Below are positions 7,694 through 35,826 of a stretch of DNA of 35,826 nt, one piece after another; the first letter of the stretch is position 1; each line of letters begins with the position of its first letter. The DNA lies in IMG/VR virus record IMGVR_UViG_3300037991_004101, positions 1-35,826 of that record. One strand, 5' to 3'. A model generated the notes under the pieces. The model saw only the letters and a program-made list of their open reading frames with translations. It did not search any database and had not been told where the DNA came from. Made by a program: the position numbers and the translations under genes. The DNA is from a virus (taxonomy: Duplodnaviria; Caudoviricetes).

Positions 7694-8136
7694 AAGCAAA
7701 GCATTTAAAAGTTCGCATTCAACAGTGTGAATTGATCGCTTCAAGCTCCCCTTGTCCACGTCGCAAAGTGGGCGCAATCATTGTTGATCCTGTGACTAAT
7801 GTCATCATTAGCGAAGGATATAACGGAACACCAAGAGGAAGTTCAAATCACTTTTGCGGTGGCGCAACATGCAAGCGTGATGAACAAGCAATTGAAAGCG
7901 GAACACAGAATGACATAGGCTGTCATCATGCTGAAATGAACGCCATCTTGAACGCTGCTAGAACTGGCAACTCAACACTTGGCAAATGGCTGATTGTCAA
8001 CTGTGATCCTTGCTTAATGTGCGCAAAAGCAATTCATCACGCTGGCATTGTCAGAGTGTATTGTCCAAAGCGGACAAGTTCAGGACTATCATATTTACAT
8101 GAAAACAAGGTCAAGCTTGTCTCAATTGAAACATAA
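7690..8136 (+). CDS. dCMP deaminase (ComEB/deoxycytidylate deaminase family)
   Basis: C.RRKVGAII, GYNG.P.G, HAEMNA and PCLMC zinc motifs; GTG start overlapping the upstream stop. Confidence 0.93.
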   Translation: MKAKHLKVRIQQCELIASSSPCPRRKVGAIIVDPVTNVIISEGYNGTPRGSSNHFCGGATCKRDEQAIESGTQNDIGCHHAEMNAILNAARTGNSTLGKWLIVNCDPCLMCAKAIHHAGIVRVYCPKRTSSGLSYLHENKVKLVSIET

Positions 8137-9258
8137 GTCAAAGAACTCGTTGACTTTGTTCCAATCGTTTTTCTTCATGTATGTCATCAGTCTTTGAGCT
8201 TCATTTATATACTCGTCAGGTATTCGATCCAGTTCAGCGACAAGTTCAGCGTAAGCTGGTTCACAGATACGAGGCCCATAAATGTTTGGTGGACAGTCTA
8301 CAAGCTTTGGGTACTGTGCGACAAAGCCAGCGTGAACACCGTCAACCGCTTCTTTGTTTTCATGAAGCCACCAATTAGTTAAATCTGACCAGCCCCTTCT
8401 GATTACATCATGTTTGATGAAGCTGTAAAAAGCGTCTTCAAGCTCTTCAGGAGTCATGTCAGCTGGATCAAGCTTTTGTCGATTCAAGCGACCTTGTGCC
8501 GCTTCTCTTGAAATATTATGCTCGTCGATCACTTCCCAAAACTCTTGCTCGTTACTGAATGACCAAACTGTCTTGGCTTCAGTCTTGGCTTCAGTCTTGG
8601 CTTCAGTCTTGGCTTCAGCTTTTACTTCAGTTTTTTTTTGCGCTTGCTGTGGTGCTTGTTGTTGTTGTGGCGCTTGACGCTTCGGTGCTTGACGCTTTGG
8701 TGCTGGCTGCTTAACGTTGATCTCTTCACCAAGTGAATCAGCGCTGATTTGCGCTCGCTCGTCATCACTCATGTTTGTGTTGTCTGCGATCTCATCAGCT
8801 GAATAGATGCCGCTGACTGCGTCGGGAAATGTTGCACGAAGTCCCATTGTCAAAACTCTTGATCTAAGCATCTGCAAAGGCATTTGACGCCAGTTGCGAT
8901 TGTTGGTCAATCCTTGTGCTTGCGCCATCTCATAAGTATAAGTAAACGTATGGACAATGTCAGCTGGCTCATCTGTTCTAGCAAACTCCATAGTGCATTG
9001 TTGAGCTGACCAAGACGCAATGCGCATGAATCGAACAAGGCCGCTATTTCGACAGATGCCTGACATCGCATCAGCATTCAAACTTGGCTTGCCTCTTAGA
9101 CAATATGCTTGAGTTTTTACTAGTCCCATATCTCCGTTGAAATGATGACCGAACGCTGAATGACAAAGTAATAAGTCAAGCGGCCTTTGTCCATCTGTCA
9201 AAAGACTTGCAATCTCTTTGGCTTCTTCTCTGTTTGTCGGTGTGTAAATTGATTTCAT
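8122..9258 (-). CDS. RecT/Red-beta-like single-strand annealing protein with C-terminal extension
   Basis: GKPSL.A..M......SG, AQGL...NW..MP.QML.SR.....LR..FPD...G.Y..DE motifs; low-complexity linker; AAGGGAG RBS. Confidence 0.75.
   Translation of the reverse strand: MKSIYTPTNREEAKEIASLLTDGQRPLDLLLCHSAFGHHFNGDMGLVKTQAYCLRGKPSLNADAMSGICRNSGLVRFMRIASWSAQQCTMEFARTDEPADIVHTFTYTYEMAQAQGLTNNRNWRQMPLQMLRSRVLTMGLRATFPDAVSGIYSADEIADNTNMSDDERAQISADSLGEEINVKQPAPKRQAPKRQAPQQQQAPQQAQKKTEVKAEAKTEAKTEAKTEAKTVWSFSNEQEFWEVIDEHNISREAAQGRLNRQKLDPADMTPEELEDAFYSFIKHDVIRRGWSDLTNWWLHENKEAVDGVHAGFVAQYPKLVDCPPNIYGPRICEPAYAELVAELDRIPDEYINEAQRLMTYMKKNDWNKVNEFFDLCFN
8571..8618. repeat. 12-bp tandem repeat (TCTTGGCTTCAG)x4 encoding the EAKT linker
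   Basis: Four exact copies, in frame within the RecT-like gene. Confidence 0.95.
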
Positions 9259-9283
9259 GTTGTGTTCTCCCTTTATTGTTTAA

Positions 9284-9568
9284 TTAGTATTGATAGTCAG
9301 CTGTTTGATAATCACGAGCGTCATCAAGCCTGGCTTCCCAGTGATCTATATTTGCAACGCACCAAGATCTAATGTTGTTGTAAGTGGGTTCAGCATTGAT
9401 AAGCATTTGCTTTCGTGTGTAGCTCATACCACCGTTGATGACATTTGCGCATTCATCGGCTGGCGCATATCCACCGAAATTGATTACTACAAAAAGAATT
9501 GGCGCAAAGATTAAAGTGATTAAGCAGACAAGTTTAAAGTCTTCCATTAATTGATTGTCGGGATTCAT
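9284..9568 (-). CDS. Small single-TM protein (94 aa)
   Basis: AAGGA RBS; LVCLITLIFAPILFVVI TM segment; two downstream Cys. Confidence 0.75.
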   Translation of the reverse strand: MNPDNQLMEDFKLVCLITLIFAPILFVVINFGGYAPADECANVINGGMSYTRKQMLINAEPTYNNIRSWCVANIDHWEARLDDARDYQTADYQY

Positions 9569-9582
9569 GTCAGTGTCCTTGT

Positions 9583-9753
9583 TTAGTTGTTTAGTTCTCT
9601 TGCCGCTTCTCTGTCGAGTTCAGCATTCAATTCTTCTTCGTATTGAGCAACGTCATCTTGTTCTTGATCATCGTTCTCAGCTTCATAGCTGTCTTGATTA
9701 TTGATGCGATGAAGTTCAATGCGCATTGCAATTGAAAGTGTCGTTGTGTCCAT
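9583..9753 (-). CDS. 56-aa highly acidic protein (not in the ORF track)
   Basis: TAAGGA RBS; MDTTTLSIAMRIELHRINNQDSYEAENDDQEQDDVAQYEEELNAELDREAARELNN*; fills the gap in the leftward operon. Confidence 0.8.
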   Translation of the reverse strand: MDTTTLSIAMRIELHRINNQDSYEAENDDQEQDDVAQYEEELNAELDREAARELNN

Positions 9754-9764
9754 GTCGTTTATCC

Positions 9765-9968
9765 TTATTGTAAAAAGTCTTGTGCTGTAAAGATGTCAGT
9801 AAACATCATCTGATTAGCAATTGAAGCGAGCTTTTCAGCAAGTTGCTTACTTGGCTTTGCTCTATTGTGAATGATCTTTGAGAGATACATTGAATTTGTC
9901 CCAGCTTGTTCAGCAAGCACTGTAAGCTTGATTGATTTCTTTAGCTTTTTTCTTTTAGCTTCATTCAT
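9765..9968 (-). CDS. Cro/XRE-like helix-turn-helix regulator
   Basis: LTVLAEQAGTNSMYLSKIIHNRAKPSKQLAEKLA fits the XRE HTH pattern; GGAG RBS before ATG 9968. Confidence 0.85.
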   Translation of the reverse strand: MNEAKRKKLKKSIKLTVLAEQAGTNSMYLSKIIHNRAKPSKQLAEKLASIANQMMFTDIFTAQDFLQ

Positions 9969-10004
9969 GTTTGTCTCCATTGAATGACTGTTGATGATGC
10001 ATAA

Positions 10005-10033
10005 GAACTAACAAGTGAAAAAAGTATAGTCAA
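10005..10033 (-). promoter_or_regulatory. Leftward sigma70-like promoter TTGACT-N17-TAGTTC (TG-extended)
   Basis: Consensus-like hexamers with 17-nt spacing, upstream of the leftward operon. Confidence 0.6.
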
Positions 10034-10058
10034 GTTTTTTTGTAGATAAAAAAACATA

Positions 10059-10087
10059 TAGACAATAATGTGTGAGCGTGTTAGTTT
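10059..10087 (+). promoter_or_regulatory. Rightward sigma70-like promoter TAGACA-N17-TAGTTT (TG-extended)
   Basis: Back-to-back with the leftward promoter, and both share TGTTAGTT; upstream of the initiator gene. Confidence 0.55.
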
Positions 10088-10115
10088 TTGTTCACTATAT
10101 AGGGGAGAAATTGAC

Positions 10116-10814
10116 ATGACTACACAAAAGAACGGTCTTGCACTCAAAGACCAATTAAGTCTTCAAGTAATGAAGCGACGTGATATCACAGCGTCAACAA
10201 AGCTCGTTTTAATCGGTATACTCTCAAGAGTAGACTGGACTACTTGGGAAAGTTCAAAAGGCTTCAAGAATGTATCTCAGAGAGATCTTGCTGACATCTG
10301 CGGAACAACGCTCGCAACAGTTGGCAAGGCAATTCAAAAGCTGGAGAGTTTAAACTTAATTCAGCGTGATGTATTCAAAGCCACAAAGCGGACAGCGCCA
10401 CCAACAAAAGTCAACATCAAGCTTATTCAAGAATACAAAGCAACTAAGATCAAGCGCTACAAAAGCAAGACTAAAACAAAGCCAGACTTTAAGCTTGAAG
10501 AAATTAAAACTATGTCACAGGGTGACAAAGAAACTAGGTCACTGAGTGACAAAGAAATTAAGTCACTGAGTGACAAAGAAAATAGGTCACTATCAATAGA
10601 GAGCGAGAATATTACAATAAAATATCAATATATAAACATGGCACTGGGCCAAGAGTGTATTGAAGAATCTGCTTTGAATGAAGAGGCTGAAGACTGGGGA
10701 GTTCGTAATTCAGAGCTTTGGGGAGATCATTTAGAGAATGATCTTTTGATTTCTTCTCACTCTGACATATACTCTGACACTGACATTGACACTGACAACG
10801 ACAAGGACAACTAA
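10116..10814 (+). CDS. Replication initiator (lambda O-like, winged HTH)
   Basis: GGGGAG RBS; SQRDLADICGTTLATVGKAIQKLESLNLI wHTH; internal iterons; adjacent DnaC-like gene. Confidence 0.8.
   Translation: MTTQKNGLALKDQLSLQVMKRRDITASTKLVLIGILSRVDWTTWESSKGFKNVSQRDLADICGTTLATVGKAIQKLESLNLIQRDVFKATKRTAPPTKVNIKLIQEYKATKIKRYKSKTKTKPDFKLEEIKTMSQGDKETRSLSDKEIKSLSDKENRSLSIESENITIKYQYINMALGQECIEESALNEEAEDWGVRNSELWGDHLENDLLISSHSDIYSDTDIDTDNDKDN
10514..10638. promoter_or_regulatory. Putative replication origin: 24-bp iterons plus AT-rich unwinding tract
   Basis: GTCAC-N3-GTGAC-AAAGAAA units at 10514, 10538 and 10562, partial unit at 10586; AT-rich tract at about 10608-10637. Confidence 0.8.
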
Positions 10815-16003: not shown

Positions 16004-16032
16004 AAACTAGATCAAATCATGACTGAAATCAA
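16004..16032 (-). promoter_or_regulatory. Minus-strand promoter TTGATT-N17-TAGTTT overlapping the terL start
   Basis: Same -10 hexamer as the rightward early promoter; points into the 15920-15965 hairpin. Confidence 0.5.
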
Positions 16033-17392
16033 ACTAAATCCGCTTCAGCTTGAAATCATCAGAGGCATCACACGCAAAGACAAAGTGATTGCTGCTCGTT
16101 GTGGCTGGGGTTCAGGCAAGACTTCAGCGCTTGTGTTCTCCATCTTGTACTTGTCAAAAACAAGACCAGGGACTTCTTCGCTTTTAGTCACTGACACAAC
16201 ACCAAGATACAATTCAGTCTTAATGCCTGAAATGGAAAAATGGCTTAGTCCTCTTGGCTGGTCATACAATCACACAATGAAACAATGGACTGACAACAAC
16301 AATGGTTCAACTGTGTGGTGTCGCTCTTACTTTCGACCAGGTACAAGAGAAGCAACGCATAATCCTTTGGAGGGTTTAAACGTAACAAGCGGAGTCTGTT
16401 TAATTGACGAGTGTCAAACACTGACAATGGAAGTAGCACATAAAGCTCTTGGTCGTCTTCGTGCTGGGCCTAGTCCCATTTTGATTCTTGTTGGCTTGCC
16501 TGTCGTCGATGCTTGGTGGGTCAACATGGCAGAAAGTCAAAACATTACGCCTCTGTTCTTCAGCTCTTATGTCAATCAAGACAACTTAGCTGATGAGTGG
16601 TTCGAAGCAACCAAGATGTTGCCGGCTGACGAGCGTGAAGCAATGATCATGAATAAGCCAAAGCCACCGAGCGGCTTGATATATTCTGAGTTCAATGAAG
16701 CAAGCCATGTCATTGATAATTGGCAATATAAAGAAAGCATGACTGGGCGCATTGCGATTGACTGGGGATTCAGAAAACCAAGTGTATTGATTATTGCATA
16801 CGATGAAGAGCTTGACGCCTCTGTCATTTGTCATGAGATCAATCCGCAAGAGGTGACAACCGATCAACTGACAACGCTAATCTTGTCGATTGCGTGGCCT
16901 CGTTCATTGAAGAGTCAAGCACCAAGCAAGCGCATTTGGCTTGATGCTGGCGTTGCTGACAAAGCTGGTAAAGCTCGCAATGATCAAACAGGCAAGAGCG
17001 CATTCAGAGTTATGCGACAAGAGCCACCAAGAGGAATTGGAGTACCTCTTCGTCATACAAGTGACCCTATCAAAGTTGACATCTTGAATGGAGTGCAACG
17101 GCTTAAACGTGCTTTCAATTCAAAGCGCTATTTAATCACCAGGGAAGTGTGGAACAAAGGCGAGCGAGCAAGTGGAAACAGCATCAGAAAAGCAATCCTT
17201 TCTTATGCTTGGGATAACAAAGAGCAGCCAAAAAAAGATGGTAGAGAAGATCCACTCGATGCTTTAAGGTATGATTGCATTACATTCAATTGGAATGAAA
17301 ACGCACTTGATCAGAAGTATAAACCAAGACGCTCGGCAGTTCGTGGAAGCAGAAAAGTAAATGTTGGAGGATCAAAGACAAGGAGCTTTTAA
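16019..17392 (+). CDS. terL: Terminase large subunit
   Basis: Walker A CGWGSGKT, Walker B CLIDE, nuclease motifs IDWG and D..DALRY. Confidence 0.93.
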   Translation: MTEIKLNPLQLEIIRGITRKDKVIAARCGWGSGKTSALVFSILYLSKTRPGTSSLLVTDTTPRYNSVLMPEMEKWLSPLGWSYNHTMKQWTDNNNGSTVWCRSYFRPGTREATHNPLEGLNVTSGVCLIDECQTLTMEVAHKALGRLRAGPSPILILVGLPVVDAWWVNMAESQNITPLFFSSYVNQDNLADEWFEATKMLPADEREAMIMNKPKPPSGLIYSEFNEASHVIDNWQYKESMTGRIAIDWGFRKPSVLIIAYDEELDASVICHEINPQEVTTDQLTTLILSIAWPRSLKSQAPSKRIWLDAGVADKAGKARNDQTGKSAFRVMRQEPPRGIGVPLRHTSDPIKVDILNGVQRLKRAFNSKRYLITREVWNKGERASGNSIRKAILSYAWDNKEQPKKDGREDPLDALRYDCITFNWNENALDQKYKPRRSAVRGSRKVNVGGSKTRSF

Positions 17393-18216
17393 TGGAGTTT
17401 ATTGAAACTAAATTAGCCATAGTTCTTCTTGACTTGATAGGCTCAACCAAGTTTGTCCAGTCCGTTGGTCCTATGAAGAGCGCTATGTGGCTTCAATACC
17501 ATGATCGGCTTGCTCGCTCCTTGATCTACAAGTTCAATGGAAGAGAGATAGATCGTTCCGATGGATTCCTCTTAAGCTTTGAACGTCCAATAGATGCGGT
17601 TAATTTCGCTCTGACTTATCAGGAAACAATTCCCCAAAAGACTAAACTTGGTTGTAGGATCGGAATACATTGGGGAGTAGTGGTGGAAGTCAAACAGGCT
17701 GAGATCTACACCATGACAGGAGCTAAGTCCGTTGAGCTTGAGGGAGTAGCCAAGAATATATCAGCTCGTACTATGTCACTTTGTCAAGCCGGTCAAGTGC
17801 TGCTAACCAAGGAAGCCATGACAGCCATTAAAGGCCGGACTAATAGCTTTACCCCCAAAGGTACAAGATACGCTTGTGTTGGTGAGTACAGGTTTAAGGG
17901 AGTCAAAGAGACTCAAATCATCTATGCAGTTGGTTCAACTATTGAATCTTTGCAACCTCCTCCAGGAGGCGACAAGGTTAAAAGACTAGGTGGACCAAAG
18001 AAGATCAAGAGTAGGATAAGAGATCGAAAGCTTAAAGAGTGGATAGCTTGGTTTTTGGTGAGGTATTGCTTTATCTTGATTCTCTATGTGATCTCTACTT
18101 CAGTCCCTATTCTAATTGATCCACATGCAAGAAAGATGAATGGAGTTGATGACCTGTTCTATTGGATAGATTATGTCATGGAGTTTATAGCGATGTTTTT
18201 AGGTGGTGTATTATGA
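17392..18216 (+). CDS. Class III nucleotidyl (adenylate/guanylate-type) cyclase with C-terminal TM helices
   Basis: LDLIGST (metal Asp 1), GREIDRSDGFL (Asp 2), RIGIHWG.V, G.AKNISAR (N-x3-R), GQVLLT, FKGV; two hydrophobic C-terminal segments. Confidence 0.88.
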   Translation: MEFIETKLAIVLLDLIGSTKFVQSVGPMKSAMWLQYHDRLARSLIYKFNGREIDRSDGFLLSFERPIDAVNFALTYQETIPQKTKLGCRIGIHWGVVVEVKQAEIYTMTGAKSVELEGVAKNISARTMSLCQAGQVLLTKEAMTAIKGRTNSFTPKGTRYACVGEYRFKGVKETQIIYAVGSTIESLQPPPGGDKVKRLGGPKKIKSRIRDRKLKEWIAWFLVRYCFILILYVISTSVPILIDPHARKMNGVDDLFYWIDYVMEFIAMFLGGVL

Positions 18217-18680
18217 ATGCAGTTGAAGACAGGCAAGAAGCTAAAGAGTTCTCCAAGGATATAAAAGCGAGGCGTGGTTGGTGGTTCTCTGTTATGTTTC
18301 TCCTCCTTATCGTTGGTCTTATCCTGTTCCTAACTTACGTTAAGATAGTCGATGAGAATAGGGACGTGTTAGTGGGAATACTTGGTGTGATCACTGGTTC
18401 AATCTCAAGCATGGTGGCTATTGCTTCCGGTCGTGATCCATCGGAAGTGGAGGAACTTAAGGACAAGCTAGCTAGCGCCAATGCAGACAGAGAAGCTTTA
18501 ATCGCTCGGCTTAGAGATGCACAAATCCAAATGCAATTGAAGACTGACCAGTTGATGGAGTTACAAGGCGCAGTCATTGACAAGCTGTCTTTGTTCAGTG
18601 GTGAGAAGCCGATCAAGACCAAGTCTATTAATCAAGTAATCCTTGATCCTACTGTTGAAGAATGGATTCCTAAAAAGTAA
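18213..18680 (+). CDS. Two-TM protein with C-terminal coiled coil, translationally coupled to the cyclase
   Basis: ATGA overlap; TM segments WWFSVMFLLLIVGLILFLTYV and VLVGILGVITGSISSMVAIA; heptads follow. Confidence 0.8.
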   Translation: MNAVEDRQEAKEFSKDIKARRGWWFSVMFLLLIVGLILFLTYVKIVDENRDVLVGILGVITGSISSMVAIASGRDPSEVEELKDKLASANADREALIARLRDAQIQMQLKTDQLMELQGAVIDKLSLFSGEKPIKTKSINQVILDPTVEEWIPKK

Positions 18681-18743
18681 TTGAAGTTTGAAGCTCACCA
18701 ACTTATAAGAGTCTTGCAGGTTGAACAAACTGCTAAATGAAAG

Positions 18744-18778
18744 AAAGGTCACTGAGTCTAAGGCGGTGGCCTTTTTTT
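18744..18778 (+). terminator. Rho-independent terminator
   Basis: AAAGGTCACTG / CGGTGGCCTTT stem (two G-U pairs, so + strand specific) running into a T7 tract. Confidence 0.8.
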
Positions 18779-18821
18779 CTATGTAGAGAAAACACTTGAT
18801 TTTATACTGAACAAGCTTTTA

Positions 18822-18850
18822 TTGATAAATAAGTGTTCAGTGTTTATATT
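18822..18850 (+). promoter_or_regulatory. Promoter for the structural operon TTGATA-N17-TATATT, with overlapping inverted repeat
   Basis: Consensus-like hexamers; ACTGAACA (18806-18813) / TGTTCAGT (18834-18841) dyad brackets the -35. Confidence 0.6.
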
Positions 18851-18882: not shown

Positions 18883-20301
18883 ATGAGCAACGAAGAAACA
18901 AAAGAACGCTCTCCGAAGCATTTAAGAGCGCTTACGCCTAGATTTGTCACCAAAGGCATAACAGGCACTCAGCTTAGTGGTGGAGTCATCACAGGTAAAG
19001 AGCAGAATCCAAAGCTTACGGGGCTTAATTGGGTTAATGAAGCTGAAGAGATGGTAAGGACTGATCCTATCGTTCGTCGCTCTTGGCATATGCTCCGCCA
19101 AACTTTACTCTCAGCCACCTGGCGCTTTGAGCCTGGAATAGAGAATGATCCGGTAGCTGATGAACTAGCTCGCTTTGCAAATGAGTGTTATGGCTTCGAT
19201 GGTTATGCAGGCCAAATGACTACCTCTTGGGAAGATCAATTGGCTTACTTATTCGAGTTCGTTCCTCTTGGTTATCGATATGCAGAGGAAATCTACCGAG
19301 TAGGACCAGACAGTCAAGGAAAGATTAAAGTATGGCTTGACCACTATGCAGATAGAGAACCGAGCGCTCATAACCGTTGGCTATCAAGAGACAGTCAAAA
19401 CCTTGATGGTGTTCTTCAGAATACAGTTGGTACAACTTACACTCCTCAACCGATACCAGCTAACAAACTTTTGCTTCTTACACTTAACAAGACAGGCTCA
19501 AACTTTGAGGGAGTTGGAATGCTCCGTCCTGTTTGGTGGTGGTGGAGAACCAAGCAAAGAGTATCAAACTTAATGTGTGTTGGTCTTGATCGATGGGCAG
19601 TACCAACTCCCAAGGTTAAAGTAGACAGATCACAAGCCGAAGCTCTTGGTCTTAGTGATGGTGATATAGACGCCATGATCGAAGATGCAGAAGCACAAGC
19701 TCAAAGTTTTATCAGTGCGGAGCAGTCCTATCTTGTGGAGAATGGCGCTGTTAGCTTTGACACTTACGCAGCACAACCGAACCTCTATGCGAGTGGACCA
19801 ATCGAGATCATAGCCAAGTGTGATTCCCAAATAGCTTCCGCTTTCCTTACTCAGTTTGCTGATCTTGGCAACACTGAAACAGGAGCGAGATCCGTTGGTG
19901 AGATCCATCTCTCAGTCTTTAGACGCTCGGCTATAAACCTTTGTGATCTTGTAGCAAGCCAAGTCAGTGGTGTTGATCGTCGTGGTGGTGGAACTATTGG
20001 ACGTTTAATCCGTTGGAACTATGGCTTAGTTGATCCCTCCAAGCTTCCAAAGCTAACTCACACAGGTCTTGACACTGATGACTTGGCCGAGTCTTTGGGA
20101 ATGCTTCCGGGCCTTGTTCAGTCTGGTCTACTGACTCCTGATGATGAGTTGGAGAGAGCAATCCGAGAGAGACTTGGAGCAGGTGACTTGCCTGAAGATG
20201 CTCAACGCTCTGCACTTGAAAGAACAAGCTCAGTCAAAGGTGGTGGTGCTATGGCAGCACTCACAGAGCAATTGATCAAGCGGAGGCGAAAGAATGGCTA
20301 A
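18883..20301 (+). CDS. Portal protein (Mu gp29/DUF935-like)
   Basis: LGY..AE.IY, IPANKLLL, G.GMLRPVWW.W..K, DRWAVP, GAR..GE.H and LIRWNYG motifs; size and position fit. Confidence 0.88.
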   Translation: MSNEETKERSPKHLRALTPRFVTKGITGTQLSGGVITGKEQNPKLTGLNWVNEAEEMVRTDPIVRRSWHMLRQTLLSATWRFEPGIENDPVADELARFANECYGFDGYAGQMTTSWEDQLAYLFEFVPLGYRYAEEIYRVGPDSQGKIKVWLDHYADREPSAHNRWLSRDSQNLDGVLQNTVGTTYTPQPIPANKLLLLTLNKTGSNFEGVGMLRPVWWWWRTKQRVSNLMCVGLDRWAVPTPKVKVDRSQAEALGLSDGDIDAMIEDAEAQAQSFISAEQSYLVENGAVSFDTYAAQPNLYASGPIEIIAKCDSQIASAFLTQFADLGNTETGARSVGEIHLSVFRRSAINLCDLVASQVSGVDRRGGGTIGRLIRWNYGLVDPSKLPKLTHTGLDTDDLAESLGMLPGLVQSGLLTPDDELERAIRERLGAGDLPEDAQRSALERTSSVKGGGAMAALTEQLIKRRRKNG

Positions 20302-22270
20302 AAAGAGAACACAAGCTCAGACTCCTGCGCCAAAAAAAGATCGAATCAAGGGAAGCGCTAAGAATCCAAAAGGGAGCGCAAGCGGTGCAAGAGGTGGAAT
20401 CAAGATCAGTGACCAAGCTGTCAAGAGTCTTGAGAACATGAGAGACAAGCACAATGATCGCTATAATGCCAAATCTAAAAAAGTAGATATGGGTACACTC
20501 AAAGCGGTCTTCCGAAGAGGTGCCGGTGCTTTTTCTGTGAGCCATCGTCCAGGTATGAACCGGACTCAATGGGCGCTCGCTCGTGTTCGAACTTTCCTCA
20601 AGTTGGTTGGAACAGGTCAAAGGAAGAAAGCCTACACCACCGATCTTGACTTACTCCCCAAAGGCCATCCTCAAAGGACCGAGAAAGAAGCTAAGGCAAA
20701 AACACTCGCTCCGAAGAAGTATGATCATATTGATTTTACTCCACCAAAGGGAGCGCAAGAGTCAGCCAAACGAGCTTTAGAAGTTCGTGCTGATAAACCA
20801 CCAAGTAAAAGAGGTATGACTCCAGTTGGCATCGCTAGAGCTAGAGATCTAGCCAACGGTCAAAGCCTTTCACCCGACACAGTCCGAAGAATGCTTAACT
20901 ATTTCACAAGACATGAAGTGGACAAAAAAGGTTCCACGTGGAACATTAAAGGAAAAGGTTGGCAAGCTTGGCATGGTTGGGGAGGTGATTCCGGCTTCTC
21001 TTGGGCAAGAAAGATCGTGAAACAAATGAATACAGCAGACGAGAAAAGCACAGCGCTCCGAGCTTATGGAGAAGCTGTCCAAATCAGTTTTAACGAACCA
21101 AGTTATGATGTTCCTAATGGACTCACTATTGGCCGACCATTTAAGACTTTAGCTCTTGGTCAAGTCTCTTCTCGTATGAGTGGAGATGCTGTTGGCAAAG
21201 AGATCGACCAAGACCTACTCCAAGAGATGGTCCGAGTCTTTAACGAGCGAAAGCAGAATGATCCAGTGATCATTGATTGGCAACATGCCACATCACCATT
21301 TCAAGGTGGAACTCCTGCGCCTCCCGAAAGTGGGAATGCTCTTGGACTCATAGTTGAATTAGATCTTCGTGAAGATGGCCTTTATGCTACTCCGGCTTAT
21401 AACGAGAGAGGATTGGAAGTGGTCAAGAATGCCGGTGGTGTTCTTTGGTCAAGTCCTGAGTTCCTTAATGGAGAAGTCTACTCTCGTGATGGTGGATCGA
21501 AGATTGGCAATGCTCAACTATTAGCAATCACACTCACTCCAAGACCTGCTCAATCACACGACAAGATTGAAAGGGTAACTCTAAACGAAAGGACATCCTT
21601 AATGGATAACATTGAGACTATGTCTGTTGAAGAACTCCGTCAAATGCTTGTCGCAAAAGATGAGATGGTGAAAGAGCTTGAACAGAAGATCAAAGATCAA
21701 ATGACAGAGTCCGAAGCTTCTATGAACAAAGAAGAAGAAGACAAAGAAGAAATGGCAGAAAAGAAAGATGAGGAGAAAGAGAACAAGCTTGCTCACACTC
21801 CGGATCATGAAGAAAAAGAAGAGAAAAAGGACTATAAAATGAGCGAACAAGTTCTAAGTGAGTCTACACTTCTAAATGAAGTTCAAGCGCTTCGTGAGAA
21901 CAACGCTAAATTAAATGAGCGTATCGAAGCAATCGAAGCAGAGAAAAAAGAAGTAGAGAAGCGTGAAGCTATCAATACTCTTTTGAATGAAGGCAAGATC
22001 ACTCCGAGCGAAGCTGTAGTAGCAGGTAAAGCTTTCGAGCTTCGTGAGATCCAAGGAGAGTTCTGGACTATGTTCTCTGAGCGACCATCGAACAGCGCTA
22101 TCCCTCTTGTAGAGGTTGGCCATGGTGCTAGTGGTGAAGAGATCAGCCGAGCCACTCTAGACGCTAAGATCCGAGAGACTGCCAAAGAGAAAAGCATGAG
22201 CTATTCTGAGGCTCTAAACTATATCCAAAAGAATCAAACTGATTTCTACACCAAAGCTATGGAGGCTTAA
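20294..22270 (+). CDS. Prohead protease (Mu I-like) / scaffold fusion with two extra basic N-terminal domains
   Basis: IIDWQHAT, SPEF and ITLTPRPA protease motifs; acidic coiled-coil C-terminus; possible internal in-frame scaffold start at 21602 (AAGGA RBS). Confidence 0.82.
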   Translation: MAKKRTQAQTPAPKKDRIKGSAKNPKGSASGARGGIKISDQAVKSLENMRDKHNDRYNAKSKKVDMGTLKAVFRRGAGAFSVSHRPGMNRTQWALARVRTFLKLVGTGQRKKAYTTDLDLLPKGHPQRTEKEAKAKTLAPKKYDHIDFTPPKGAQESAKRALEVRADKPPSKRGMTPVGIARARDLANGQSLSPDTVRRMLNYFTRHEVDKKGSTWNIKGKGWQAWHGWGGDSGFSWARKIVKQMNTADEKSTALRAYGEAVQISFNEPSYDVPNGLTIGRPFKTLALGQVSSRMSGDAVGKEIDQDLLQEMVRVFNERKQNDPVIIDWQHATSPFQGGTPAPPESGNALGLIVELDLREDGLYATPAYNERGLEVVKNAGGVLWSSPEFLNGEVYSRDGGSKIGNAQLLAITLTPRPAQSHDKIERVTLNERTSLMDNIETMSVEELRQMLVAKDEMVKELEQKIKDQMTESEASMNKEEEDKEEMAEKKDEEKENKLAHTPDHEEKEEKKDYKMSEQVLSESTLLNEVQALRENNAKLNERIEAIEAEKKEVEKREAINTLLNEGKITPSEAVVAGKAFELREIQGEFWTMFSERPSNSAIPLVEVGHGASGEEISRATLDAKIRETAKEKSMSYSEALNYIQKNQTDFYTKAMEA

Positions 22271-33044: not shown

Positions 33045-33653
33045 GTGTTAATACCTACAGGATTTAAAAGACTACCAAGTGAGCAAGGTTGCTATAATAA
33101 TCAAGTTCTCTTTGGTGGAACTGTTAGCCAAATGGCTAGCGCTTTAGCTCAACTTACTCACTGTAAGTTCTTAGGACAGGCACATTATAACATTGGTCAA
33201 CCGACATTCACTGCGATAGGTGGCAGACAAGGTTCAAGTACACTCTATAAGAATGTGACTTCCTATAATCTCCTATTCCAAACAACGCCTATCACTTCAC
33301 ACTTGGCTTTGATCGTCCAGTGTAGATCTTGGGGAGATCCAAATCAGAGCTGTTTCTTTGATGTAGAGTTGAGGAATACAACAAGCAACAGTTACTCAGG
33401 GACCGTCCTAGATGTTGGGATAAGATTCCAACAAGGATCTGATCTAACCGGTGGGGACTTTGAAACAATAACAGCTTTCACAGGAACGGAATTAATTGAC
33501 GCTCCGACCAATACCACTCCGGACTTTCCTCGGCCTTTGTTTGTACCAAGTGCAAATCGTGGTCAGCTGTTAAACTTGCGATTTGACTTTAATTATGTGG
33601 AAGCCTTTACTATTCATATATATGATTTGTTGATTCCTGAGGTGACTCCATGA
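33045..33653 (+). CDS. Minor tail protein (GTG start)
   Basis: TAGGAG RBS; within the tail operon. Confidence 0.55.
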   Translation: MLIPTGFKRLPSEQGCYNNQVLFGGTVSQMASALAQLTHCKFLGQAHYNIGQPTFTAIGGRQGSSTLYKNVTSYNLLFQTTPITSHLALIVQCRSWGDPNQSCFFDVELRNTTSNSYSGTVLDVGIRFQQGSDLTGGDFETITAFTGTELIDAPTNTTPDFPRPLFVPSANRGQLLNLRFDFNYVEAFTIHIYDLLIPEVTP

Positions 33654-35826
33654 CAATAACAAGAGAGAATGGACGCAGGATCTTTGCTCTTCAAGTCAGT
33701 GGATTAGAGTATAGATACCACAGCACCACACCACCAAGCTCAACGAGTTTAGATGCTAACATAGCAACAAGCATTGCTTATATTGATCAAGAGGGAATCT
33801 CAACAGTTGGAGCTTTTAGCGCTTCGGTTGATCCAAGTGGTGGTATTGGTCAATACTCTCCAATTTCAATCACTCTCCAAATAGATCGCAAAGGTGGAAG
33901 TGGAGATCCAGGAGTAGTCTTTGGCAGGTGTGGCGCTCGGAGTGCTTCCAAGAGAGCACAGTTAACCGAAGATATAAACAGAGCAGACACCACCATCAAA
34001 GTAGGTCTTGATTTAACTGGATTATCTTATCCAAGGCTTTTTCATATTGGTTCTGAAACAGTCAGAGCAAGTAGCGCAACAAGCTCAACCATCACAGTAA
34101 CAAGAGCACAGGGAAACACTAGACCACAGTTTCATCGAGTAGATCTTGAGGGGTCTTTTGTTCCTGAGATCACAACCGAGATAACCACCTTTAGAGGTAG
34201 ACGAGCAAAACTATTCATGGCTCATCAATATACTGATGGGACTGTTAGTAATTATGTAGAAGTGATAAACGGCTTTATTGAGCAAAGTCCAATCATTGAA
34301 GCAGGTGACTCCATCTCTTTGTCTATCGTTCCTTTGACTGCTCTACTTGATACTGAGTTGGCTGACAAGATCAGTCAGACTAGACTCCTACAAGGCTTCC
34401 ACTATTTCGATGGTGAATATGGAAGCTCTATGGAGTACGCTCTTGGATTGAGTTATGACACCGAGCATCAAAGTCCAACACTTGCTCCAGATACAAGCAC
34501 AGCCATAACAGCAAATACTTTTAATACTGTTATCAATTCAAATTATACAACAGCGGATTACTTAGCCGACTTTGATCCATCTTTACCAAGTGGACCGGAT
34601 CGAGATGAATACATAGGAAGCCACCCACGTTATCCAAAGCTTAAGAGCTTCTTTCAAGCTCCTTTTGCAAATGAGGGAGTCTTCCCAACTAACTTAACTT
34701 ATTCCTCATCAATATCCGGTTATACAGTCAACGCAGATAGCTCTCCAAGTGTAGCGCTCACAGCAACAGAAATAACGAATACAGGCTTTTTTAACATCAC
34801 AGTAAACCGATATGAATTGAAACAACATGAGCTTGGTAATTCTGAGGTCAAGCGATGGCCTAATGTGATCAATGATGTTTTGGCAAGCTCAGGACCAAGC
34901 ACAACTCAAGGCTTTAATGGTGGCTTTGCTCAATGGCGCTTGAATGCTGATAATGTGATTCGAGCAAGCAAGCTGAGTAACTCACCATTTAAGGGCAAGG
35001 TAGTCTTATGGAATGGCTACAACGGTTTTATTAAGTTTAAAGAACATATTGAGAATGAGTTTGGAACAGCTTCTCCGAGGCTATACACCAACAACGGAAC
35101 AAGCTTAAACTTTCCTCCGGGTATTGGCCTTTATTATCCCTTGGACATTGGGGAGCAAGAAGATCCATTCTATCCCGACCAAGGTGACAAGTTCATAGAG
35201 GTCACAGCCTCAACCGAATCGAGAACAGGCTTTTTTAATCTTCGTGATATGGCTAAAGCATATTACCAAAACTATGAGTCTAAGATCTTGGTTGAGGATT
35301 CGCTTGGCTTGCCTACTTCGGCAACAGCAGGAAAAGTTTATGACATCATAGTTCTATACTATGACCGACAGAGCGAGAGCACCAAGAGACAAACTTTTCA
35401 AGTGACTCATGAAACTTCTGCAAGCTTTGGAGGATCATCTATAGGAAGACTTCTTCATATAGCCGATTCTAATAGCTTCTCCAATAATGTGAGCTTTGCA
35501 GATTGGCAAGATTCGGAAAGAGTCTTGATCTTTAGAGGTAGTCAAGTCATTGAAGACAATGCAGGCCAAATCATGCTCAAGCTCTTAGAGAGTGGCGGTG
35601 GTGATTCGATTAATGGCAGCTATGATCTTTTAGGATTAGGCTTGAATATATCAAGTAGCGACATCGATGAAGATAGCTTCTTGGCCGTTGGCGCTTCCTG
35701 TCCTTTTGTGTTCACTGATCAATTCGCAGGAGATGGTTCAAGCTTGAGAGAGATCTTTGATAGCTTGTTGAAATTGATGGGTTCTTGTCTTGTAATGAAG
35801 CGAGATGAGTCCACCGGTCGAAGTCG
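33650..35826 (+). CDS. Large tail-tip/hub protein, N-terminal part (runs off the window end; missed by the ORF track)
   Basis: GAGG RBS and ATGA overlap; MTITRENGRRIFALQVSG... has no stop to the window end; continues as 1-1500. Confidence 0.88.
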   Translation, partial: MTITRENGRRIFALQVSGLEYRYHSTTPPSSTSLDANIATSIAYIDQEGISTVGAFSASVDPSGGIGQYSPISITLQIDRKGGSGDPGVVFGRCGARSASKRAQLTEDINRADTTIKVGLDLTGLSYPRLFHIGSETVRASSATSSTITVTRAQGNTRPQFHRVDLEGSFVPEITTEITTFRGRRAKLFMAHQYTDGTVSNYVEVINGFIEQSPIIEAGDSISLSIVPLTALLDTELADKISQTRLLQGFHYFDGEYGSSMEYALGLSYDTEHQSPTLAPDTSTAITANTFNTVINSNYTTADYLADFDPSLPSGPDRDEYIGSHPRYPKLKSFFQAPFANEGVFPTNLTYSSSISGYTVNADSSPSVALTATEITNTGFFNITVNRYELKQHELGNSEVKRWPNVINDVLASSGPSTTQGFNGGFAQWRLNADNVIRASKLSNSPFKGKVVLWNGYNGFIKFKEHIENEFGTASPRLYTNNGTSLNFPPGIGLYYPLDIGEQEDPFYPDQGDKFIEVTASTESRTGFFNLRDMAKAYYQNYESKILVEDSLGLPTSATAGKVYDIIVLYYDRQSESTKRQTFQVTHETSASFGGSSIGRLLHIADSNSFSNNVSFADWQDSERVLIFRGSQVIEDNAGQIMLKLLESGGGDSINGSYDLLGLGLNISSSDIDEDSFLAVGASCPFVFTDQFAGDGSSLREIFDSLLKLMGSCLVMKRDESTGRS
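35225..35826 (+). repeat. Right copy of the 602-nt imperfect terminal overlap
   Basis: About 92% identical to 1-602 by manual alignment. Confidence 0.95.

Follow-up and report, generated by a model that had tools for sequence, protein, structure and literature searches.

In the genome of a ~35-kb uncultured marine phage, two adjacent genes located between those for the terminase large subunit (terL) and the portal protein encode a class III nucleotidyl cyclase-fold protein of 274 amino acids (CYC) and a coiled-coil protein of 155 amino acids with two transmembrane (TM) helices (TM2), and these genes almost certainly constitute a selected two-gene unit. In the window, by which we mean the whole 35,826-nucleotide stretch of DNA analysed, CYC (positions 17392–18216) and TM2 (18213–18680) both lie on the plus strand, with the former being assigned on profile, fold, conservation, and hydropathy evidence and the latter on hydropathy, dN/dS, and a match to phrog_9990. 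The flanking genes were identified as terL (16019–17392, plus strand; PHROG terminase large subunit, E = 3.8e-9) and portal (18883–20301, plus strand; Pfam Portal_Mu, E = 5e-25, and PHROG portal), in agreement with the location given in an earlier note on the same DNA. The ATGA overlap that couples CYC to the 2-TM/coiled-coil gene was also present as described there, and the stop codon of terL overlaps the start codon of CYC (TAATG); we infer that terL, as the upstream flank, shares a transcript with CYC. An intrinsic terminator-like hairpin with a U tract (18739–18779, plus strand) had a folding energy of −21.2 kcal/mol (z = −5.2), with none of 200 shuffled sequences being equally stable, and it is retained in a contig from which the pair is deleted (L090). 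The terminator reported to follow the pair is present, but it closes the entire terS-terL-CYC-TM2 run and survives loss of the pair. A promoter scan yielded 6 sites versus 6.7 expected, and no promoter is therefore claimed. No joints were seen in contigs aligned over the region. The terL-portal slot also takes other passengers, including methylases, thyX, dCMP deaminase, and a sigma-like gene, and thyX was a close neighbour (no more than 5 kb away) in 5 of 17 non-terL contexts.

The earlier note had proposed that the two genes form a module and had called for a check of their co-occurrence, with the 2-TM gene standing independently of the cyclase in most relatives as one outcome that would count against it. 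Among 40 terL loci that reach portal, 25 contained both genes, 15 neither, and none only one, so that the 2-TM gene was not found without the cyclase in any of these spans. All 80 viral loci anchored on TM2 have CYC upstream, as do 69 of 80 metagenome loci, with the order being swapped or an insertion intervening in 4 of the latter and the remaining 7 being too short. The pair also turns up in phages as large as 375 kb, in some cases with its gene order reversed, and is adjacent in unrelated large phages. TM2 was never found alone, and two outgroup cyclases that lack the catalytic Asn (L342 and L343) are without TM2 and have another TM-plus-coiled-coil gene directly upstream. A single deletion removes both genes in L090. 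The junction was present in one contig only and could be a low-frequency variant or an artefact of assembly; two further lineages without the module do not hinge on it. The dN/dS values for the CYC domain (0.075) and TM2 (0.056) indicate purifying selection and are close to that for terL. Broken copies of terL (1 of 114) are as frequent as those of CYC (1 of 137) and TM2 (1 of 119), and we therefore disregarded the split copies of CYC (L158) and of TM2 (L235). A further 44 shorter TM2 matches, 60 to 94% identical over part of the query, look like fragments. Covariation analysis of CYC and TM2 (125 pairs, Neff of 45) yielded noise in variable columns only.

CYC is a class III cyclase-fold protein. 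It comprises a cyclase domain (residues 1 to ~190), a basic linker (193–216), a TM anchor (218–236), and a variable tail, and its motifs LDLIGST (D14), REIDRSDGF (D57), VELEG, and NISAR (N122 and R126) include both metal-binding Asp residues and the N-x3-R signature noticed previously. These four residues are conserved without exception among 121 close homologues, and the catalytic Asn is present in 125 of 130 unique phage CYC proteins in a wider homologue set; the Asn of N-x3-R is a trait of the phage clade, with Pro or Ala at this position in large relatives and no such Asn in cellular relatives. Comparison with the Pfam Guanylate_cyc profile, which had been suggested as a check, gave 24.1 bits relative to a cut-off of 21.9. 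An AF2 model of CYC (pLDDT of 85) matched class III cyclases in Foldseek (E = 1e-13), and its best fold match was 1ybt (Z of 23.0, rmsd of 2.0 over 166 residues). Hydropathy analysis revealed a single clear TM helix rather than the several C-terminal helices first described, with one hydrophobic peak being apparent in 89 of 120 homologues and two peaks in 31. The TM tail has a dN/dS of 0.38. The base-specifying positions are noncanonical, as had been noted: neither the pair for ATP (K with D or T) nor that for GTP (E with C) is present, and CYC instead has D54 and E115. E115 occupies the adenine-type Asp position, and the register of D54 is uncertain by one residue, with D54 falling at the specificity site in two of four pairwise alignments and a gap falling there in the other two. 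The active site is also atypical in that the β2-β3 turn is one residue shorter and in the presence of invariant K112 and K121. We predict with good confidence that CYC is enzymatically active.

The CYC domain belongs, by sequence, with the TIGR04510/XC_0250 clade, as the earlier note had suggested in pointing to peptide-modification cyclases. Positions 7–204 (of 814) of the TIGR04510 profile match CYC with an E value of 2.5e-42; the score of 145 bits is below the 400-bit cut-off for the full-length family. An XC_0250 orthologue (L314) is 34% identical to CYC over 189 amino acids and shares with it the odd motifs D-R-S-D-G and GAK..E.EG.AK, and the clade motifs D28/D14, D-R-S-D-G, GAK..E.EG..K, and Arg are common to CYC and XC_0250/TIGR04510 proteins. 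CYC differs from these proteins in its size (274 versus 810 to 900 amino acids), its lack of a TPR part, its TM tail, its transition-state Asn in place of Pro, and its partner, which is TM2 rather than the cNMP-GGDEF protein that accompanies the XC_0250-type gene. A linked cNMP_binding or GGDEF gene is present beside L314, and none was found among the 42 open reading frames of the window. The closest large relatives of CYC have the same domain fused to STAND NTPases, TPRs, and kinases. The best solved structures by both sequence and fold, those of the compact mycobacterial cyclases Rv1900c/LipJ (1ybt, 1ybu) and Ma1120 (4wp9, 5d0e), gave Z values of 23.0 and 18.6 with 22 to 27% identity to CYC; these proteins are adenylyl cyclases that make cAMP, differ from CYC in their base-specifying residues, and have no TM2-type partner. 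The K101E mutation of Ma1120 increases guanylyl cyclase activity (PMC4215837).

XC_0250 of Xanthomonas campestris has been reported to be a GTP-specific guanylate cyclase (PMC3770947). XC_0250 is the sole characterised member of the clade, and we put the chance that CYC makes cGMP at about even. The residue assignments for XC_0250 in that report do not fit our alignment, and we found no correction notice for it. The earlier leaning toward a product other than cAMP or cGMP is not supported, given the reported activity of XC_0250 and the odd motifs of its orthologue.

TM2 consists of two TM helices (residues 25–43 and 52–70), whose short connecting loop contains an NRD motif, followed by a conserved, predicted coiled coil (76–128). 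The membrane helices and the coiled coil are equally constrained (dN/dS of 0.052 each). We collected, with the pattern itself as the seed, a reference set of 16 two-helix NRD..Y[YF]FG proteins, 13 of which adjoin a peptidoglycan hydrolase (endolysin). TM2 scored 35 bits against the profile of this set, whereas none of 500 motif-preserving shuffles exceeded 20.3. After masking of the columns fixed by the pattern, the median for TM2 was 10.8 bits and the best members reached 21.8, compared with 11.4 for the best non-member, so that only the best members stood apart. In addition, phrog_9990 matches 51 of 51 TM2 members and 11 of the 16 reference proteins. This lysis-cassette family (phrog_9990, phrog_1544, phrog_38564), which is annotated as being of unknown function, has a hairpin with the same N-R-D-x6-G register as TM2. 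TM2 differs in that its hairpin ends in IASGRDP, in its conserved COOH-terminal coiled coil, and in adjoining a cyclase rather than an endolysin. TM2 is probably related to these lysis-cassette proteins, and this putative kinship, which we regard as moderate, lends support to the earlier remark that the partner could be holin-like. Holins are usually far less conserved than is TM2. In the small phages the pair lies outside the lysis cassette, in the window TM2 is not beside the endolysin-like gene, and a scan of 73 neighbours from large-phage contexts revealed no endolysin family. Profile searches of TM2 found no known nucleotide-binding domain, as the earlier note had also seen. SLATT profiles scored below their cut-offs (17.2 versus 26.5 bits for SLATT_fungal, and 13.6 versus 35), fold searches with the TM2 model (pLDDT of 71, pTM of 0.27) returned only generic long-helix matches, and the ESM Atlas returned three clusters for full-length TM2, all of them viral and without a name, whereas residues 15–95 gave no named match that could be used.

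All occurrences of the pair that we found were in viral or metagenomic contigs, including those of many uncultured marine phages. Among 50,697 cultured-phage records, there was no match to TM2 and one weak match to CYC. Sampling of genome contigs with two patterns yielded no CYC relatives, and a sample of 301 genomes from one phylum (that of G001) yielded no TM2; neither sample establishes absence. Our literature search found no paper on this gene pair.

In combining a class III cyclase with a membrane protein in two genes, the pair resembles Pycsar and Pucsar, in which a cNMP cyclase is coupled to a CNBD-TIR or a pJV1-spdB3 3TM effector, with Pucsar making cGMP (10.64898/2026.08.12.744502). 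These systems defend the host, their cyclases are soluble and belong to another clade, and their effectors are of the 3TM or TIR type, whereas CYC is membrane-tethered and TM2 has two TM helices, no CNBD, and no PADLOC match. PADLOC gave no match for P0001, PycC matched two homologues only, and weakly (15 to 23 bits), and PycC structures ranked 18 to 21 (Z of 15 to 17), below purine cyclases, in the fold search with CYC; the link to Pycsar drawn previously thus holds as an analogy but not as identity. Panoptes (OptS-OptE; PMC12657218) follows a logic like that of our preferred model, in which a membrane effector is silenced for as long as a nucleotide signal persists; OptS, however, is an mCpol that produces cyclic dinucleotides, and the binding domain of OptE is soluble. 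OptS matched CYC with a Z of 9.6, which is within the GGDEF-like background and does not indicate homology.

Our preferred model, held tentatively and from sequence, is that cGMP produced by membrane-tethered CYC restrains a probably holin-derived TM2 and thereby tunes lysis or the response to superinfection; that TM2 is a controlled membrane effector is likewise possible, at somewhat less than even odds. CYC would be translated by coupling from the terL transcript and would therefore appear in the middle to late stages of infection. It would dimerise at the inner membrane, with D14 and D57 binding metals and N122 and R126 stabilising the transition state as in class III enzymes, and the acidic D54, which falls on the Lys/Glu specificity site or adjacent to it, may favour GTP. 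The hairpin and the cytoplasmic coiled coil of TM2 would mediate its oligomerisation, and TM2 would encounter CYC or the CYC product at the face of the membrane, where the CYC linker is basic (+8) and the facing TM2 segment acidic (−3). A high signal would keep TM2 closed, and a fall in the signal, due to NTP exhaustion or to a competing phage that destroys cNMP, would release it, as in the Panoptes-like logic. Given that the phage has a separate endolysin-like gene (1500–2165) with its own neighbouring 73-amino acid 2-TM gene, TM2 would act as a modulator of lysis rather than as the sole holin. A more elaborate version, which we consider unlikely, is a phage second-messenger circuit assembled from a pared-down cyclase of bacteria and a membrane protein of lysis cassettes, in which cGMP would report the nucleotide state of the infected cell, gate a holin-derived pore through a new coiled-coil cNMP site, and so set lysis time or bring about cell death on depletion of the signal by a rival phage.

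Somewhat less probable than our preferred model, and on balance rather unlikely, is that TM2 is a sensor or regulatory subunit that switches the CYC dimer through its coiled coil in place of the absent TPR or STAND domains, with cGMP acting on CRP-like or cNMP-GGDEF proteins of the host and thereby changing surface, motility, or metabolism. No cNMP-binding domain was found in ten phage records (the window and nine related records), and the adjacency of the cellular XC_0250-type gene to a cNMP-GGDEF receptor also favours such an arrangement. Most TM2-paired cyclases (110 of 125) contain a basic linker motif that is missing from L342 and L343, and the other TM-plus-coiled-coil gene upstream of these TM2-less cyclases points in the same direction. 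The constraint on the TM2 helices, which equals that on the coiled coil while the CYC tail drifts, and the location of TM2 relatives in lysis cassettes argue against this reading.

It is improbable that CYC serves counter-defence, in which it would flood or jam a cNMP immune pathway of the host, either through production of a competing nucleotide or through association with related cyclases of the host, with TM2 positioning it. The STAND, TPR, and kinase fusions of its large relatives would fit this role, with STAND-fused cNMP cyclases being a predicted immune clade (10.64898/2026.08.12.744502) and a candidate match to the CYC clade, as would the spread of the pair among unrelated phages and a slot shared with DNA methylases. 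Jamming, however, needs no obligate membrane partner from a lysis family, and the place behind terL suggests late expression. Similarly improbable is that CYC binds NTP but makes either no cNMP or a different product, acting on TM2 by contact as a nucleotide-sensing, antiholin-like protein. The atypical active site, the Pfam score barely above the cut-off, and the proximity of thyX would be compatible with this role, but the metal-binding Asp pair and Arg are invariant, the clade has the canonical Asn, and the nearest solved folds are those of active cyclases. That two unrelated accessory genes share an insertion hot spot by chance is scarcely credible: the slot hosts many passengers and the CYC-TM2 distance correlation (0.68) is not above that of either gene with terL (0.75), but other passengers come and go singly and CYC and TM2 never do, and the absence of single-gene spans together with the linkage across phage types, swapped order included, already contradicts it.

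In the published systems considered here, cyclic-nucleotide signals are produced by bacteria and are degraded or sequestered by phages. If our preferred model is correct, a widespread phage module under strong selection that both produces such a signal and links it to a membrane protein of lysis ancestry would reverse this picture, and it may point to a lysis clock set by metabolism or a means of phage-versus-phage exclusion as well as a possible mode of cNMP binding that does not rely on a CNBD. The module would also provide an independent test of the product of the large TIGR04510 clade, which is now based on one paper.

Re-examination of the sequence confirmed the open reading frames of both the cyclase (17392..18216) and its two-helix partner TM2 (18213..18680), together with their overlaps, their motifs and the terminator (18739..18779), all as the earlier note had described them. 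Of the C-terminal transmembrane helices that it had assigned to the cyclase, only one is clear. The kinship that it had proposed with peptide-modification cyclases held, the N-terminal part of NCBIfam family TIGR04510 matching the cyclase with an E value of 2.5e-42. The protein scored above its Pfam cut-off in a profile search, and its AF2 model (pLDDT 85) gave 187 PDB matches at E ≤ 0.001, with Ma1120 and Rv1900c at the top and a best structural Z of 23.0. The cyclase fold is therefore secure.

A profile search of 1.84 billion representatives retrieved a few phage-type proteins first and then large fusion proteins, in which the same type of domain is joined to TPRs, STAND NTPases, kinases or WD40 repeats (34 of 150 scanned). 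The TIGR04510 cut-off was passed by 36 of 38 large relatives chosen by length. Named genomes with such genes were mostly Lysobacterales, and 122 of the 201 genomes in the family of genome G001 carried one, a tally in which the unpublished genome G171 is counted. Among 107 large relatives, D14, D54, D57, K112, G118, K121 and R126 of the phage cyclase were conserved in 106–107 and E115 in 100, with the position of N122 occupied by Pro in 75 and by Ala in 22. In a FastTree of 77 domains, which was midpoint-rooted and indicated no donor, the TM2-paired phage cyclases formed a single clade (support 0.998) that also contained three proteins of unknown context. Two relatives lacking the Asn (L342:5234-6363 and L343:5648-6768) fell outside this clade. 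They lie in a baseplate region without TM2, immediately downstream of a one-helix coiled-coil gene of 101–103 amino acids that is possibly a second type of partner. The phage cyclase is a new, truncated, membrane-tethered variant within a known clade. Its pairing with TM2 echoes the two-gene plan of Pycsar, Pucsar and Panoptes, although by membership tests the pair belongs to none of these; no phage-borne cyclase with a TM2-type partner was found in the literature covered, from which subscription journals were mostly absent.

The orthologue of the Xanthomonas campestris clade member XC_0250 (L314:1453-4113, 886 amino acids) is encoded behind a cNMP-GGDEF gene, is 34% identical to the phage cyclase over 189 residues, and has D41, D71, L73, A150, L157 and A161 at exactly the published XC_0250 numbering. 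PMC3770947 reports cGMP synthesis by XC_0250 and no activity on ATP. The catalytic residues named there (D41, L157 and A161) disagree with our alignment, which places the first metal-binding Asp at D28 and the transition-state residues at P141 and R145; we therefore give this cGMP report moderate weight. In two of four alignments, D54 coincided with position 101 of Ma1120 or with the Asn of Rv1900c; according to PMC4215837, K101E moves Ma1120 towards GTP. E115 corresponds, judged by spacing, to D157 of Ma1120, a placement that would favour adenine. Our best guess for the product is cGMP, at roughly even chances.

Homologue clusters numbered 737 for the cyclase and 1533 for TM2. Three sets of loci, which overlap and include near-identical phages, were examined for pairing. 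The cyclase was upstream of TM2 in all of the 80 best viral loci anchored on TM2 (out of 213) and in 69 of the 80 best metagenome loci (out of 404), where the contig was too short in seven, the order was swapped in two and a 700-codon gene intervened in two. Among terL-anchored loci (best 80 of 226), 40 extended to the portal gene and the other 40 ended too early; 25 of these 40 spans carried both genes, 15 neither and none one alone, and the independent occurrence of TM2 that the earlier note had named as counting against it was thus not seen. Unique protein pairs numbered 125, or about 45 at 90% weighting. A further 66 loci, reached via distant cyclases, contained TM2 in 62 cases, were cut at the contig end in two and lacked TM2 in two (L342 and L343). 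The pair was present in contigs of up to 375,691 bases, among unrelated neighbours.

Phages without the module occupied three places on a midpoint-rooted tree of 84 terL sequences, which we read as three joint losses; 70 of the sequences came from phages with both genes and 14 from phages with neither, the fetching of loci having enriched the former. In one of the three losses, contig L090 retains the first nine cyclase codons, fused at a CTTGC microhomology to the spacer that follows TM2, a junction seen once. Both genes were also absent from a relative rated 100% complete, with three controls positive for TM2. Given these losses and the lack of single-gene spans, the module is dispensable yet indivisible. 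The cyclase had a median pairwise dN/dS of 0.075 in its catalytic domain and 0.38 in its tail; the medians for TM2 and terL were 0.056 and 0.054 (68 unique loci and the window, dS restricted to 0.1–1.5).

Besides its two transmembrane helices and a short loop, TM2 has a predicted coiled coil that contains invariant polar residues. No family in Pfam, NCBIfam or PADLOC matched it above its cut-off, and phrog_9990 was weakly matched by all 51 aligned members. To test for kinship with lysis cassettes, we combined the N-R-D-x6-G register of TM2 with a Y[YF]FGSS ending and found 16 viral loci. A profile of these 16 proteins scored the window TM2 at 35 bits, compared with a maximum of 20.3 for 500 shuffles that kept the pattern residues; with the pattern columns masked, TM2 reached 21.8 at best (median 10.8) and the best other ORF 11.4 (6702 ORFs). 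Phrog_9990 was matched by 11 of the 16, and, with 40 of 70 neighbouring ORFs scanned, a peptidoglycan hydrolase lay within about 1.3 kb in 13, with a DUF5675 gene in a 14th. On the 35-bit score, phrog_9990 and the hydrolase neighbours together, the TM2 hairpin probably derives from a lysis-cassette protein, although that family is unnamed and our search for it was seeded with a pattern of our own making.

The window spans an entire virus record. Its ends (1-602 and about 35225-35826) overlap over 603 bases at 92% identity, and the genome is therefore probably complete at about 35.2 kb; this repeat also makes it probable that ORFs 33650-35824 and 1-1500 belong to a single tail gene and that the assembly joins two strain variants. 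Its best-matching contigs are marine metagenomes, and its portal protein is only 23–27% identical to those of cultured phages among the 20 matches listed. The genome encodes replication functions, thyX, terS, terL and the portal, capsid and tail proteins; an endolysin-like gene and its small two-helix neighbour lie at 1500-2370. In G+C content the cyclase–TM2 pair resembles the remaining genome. The layout of 8122-10814 is lambda-like, a replication initiator and a DnaC-like loader being opposed by a RecT-like gene and a short HTH-like ORF on the minus strand, but no integrase was found among 42 window ORFs. Downstream of portal, a 658-amino acid gene (20294-22270; 415–570 amino acids in relatives) joins an N-terminal DUF5824/phrog_2859 region to a predicted protease-scaffold part.

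The slot between terL and portal (window 17392) is a hot spot in related loci, with passengers gained and lost: DNA methylase-like genes, thyX, dCMP deaminase and a 150-amino acid sigma-factor-like gene, the methylase and sigma labels coming from motifs rather than a profile scan. A cytosine-methylase-like ORF follows terL in five related loci (L003:4796-5980, L012, L079, L146 and L147), in each of which a second long ORF (331–579 amino acids) in another frame of the same strand covers most of it. A 22-base element 5' of portal (18803-18824), identical in 54 of 424 loci that were not deduplicated and present also in module-less phages, is possibly a late promoter or operator. Of 17 contexts away from terL, five (L370, L384, L385, L396 and L230) have thyX no more than 5 kb from the pair, some also with purA, guaC/IMPDH, purB-like or pyrD-like genes close by. 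In several large phages the pair repeatedly adjoins a membrane protein of 88–98 amino acids with a P-x-K-S-K-K-F motif (L396:6079-6345, L221:1960-2256, L344:5626-5919 and L229:3529-3822), with no Pfam match in the three scanned.

A search for cNMP-binding domains gave none in the window, in nine other records (four at least 90% complete) or in the 73 of 125 neighbours scanned. The mechanism that we favour, tentatively, is a guard-type circuit of cyclase and TM2, its direction suggested by the fact that TM2 never occurs alone, by how strongly its membrane helices are constrained and by the logic of Panoptes (PMC12657218). The main rival, in which TM2 would act as the sensor with the host as its target, is somewhat less probable. 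A counter-defence role is improbable, even with the STAND-fused relatives of the cyclase domain in its favour, which a preprint (10.64898/2026.08.12.744502) treats as a predicted immune clade; we likewise give little credence to the cyclase being a non-catalytic sensor. In the guard-type circuit, the cyclase would be made late and tethered to the membrane, where it would produce cGMP, and this cGMP may keep a holin-derived effector, TM2, shut until the signal drops.
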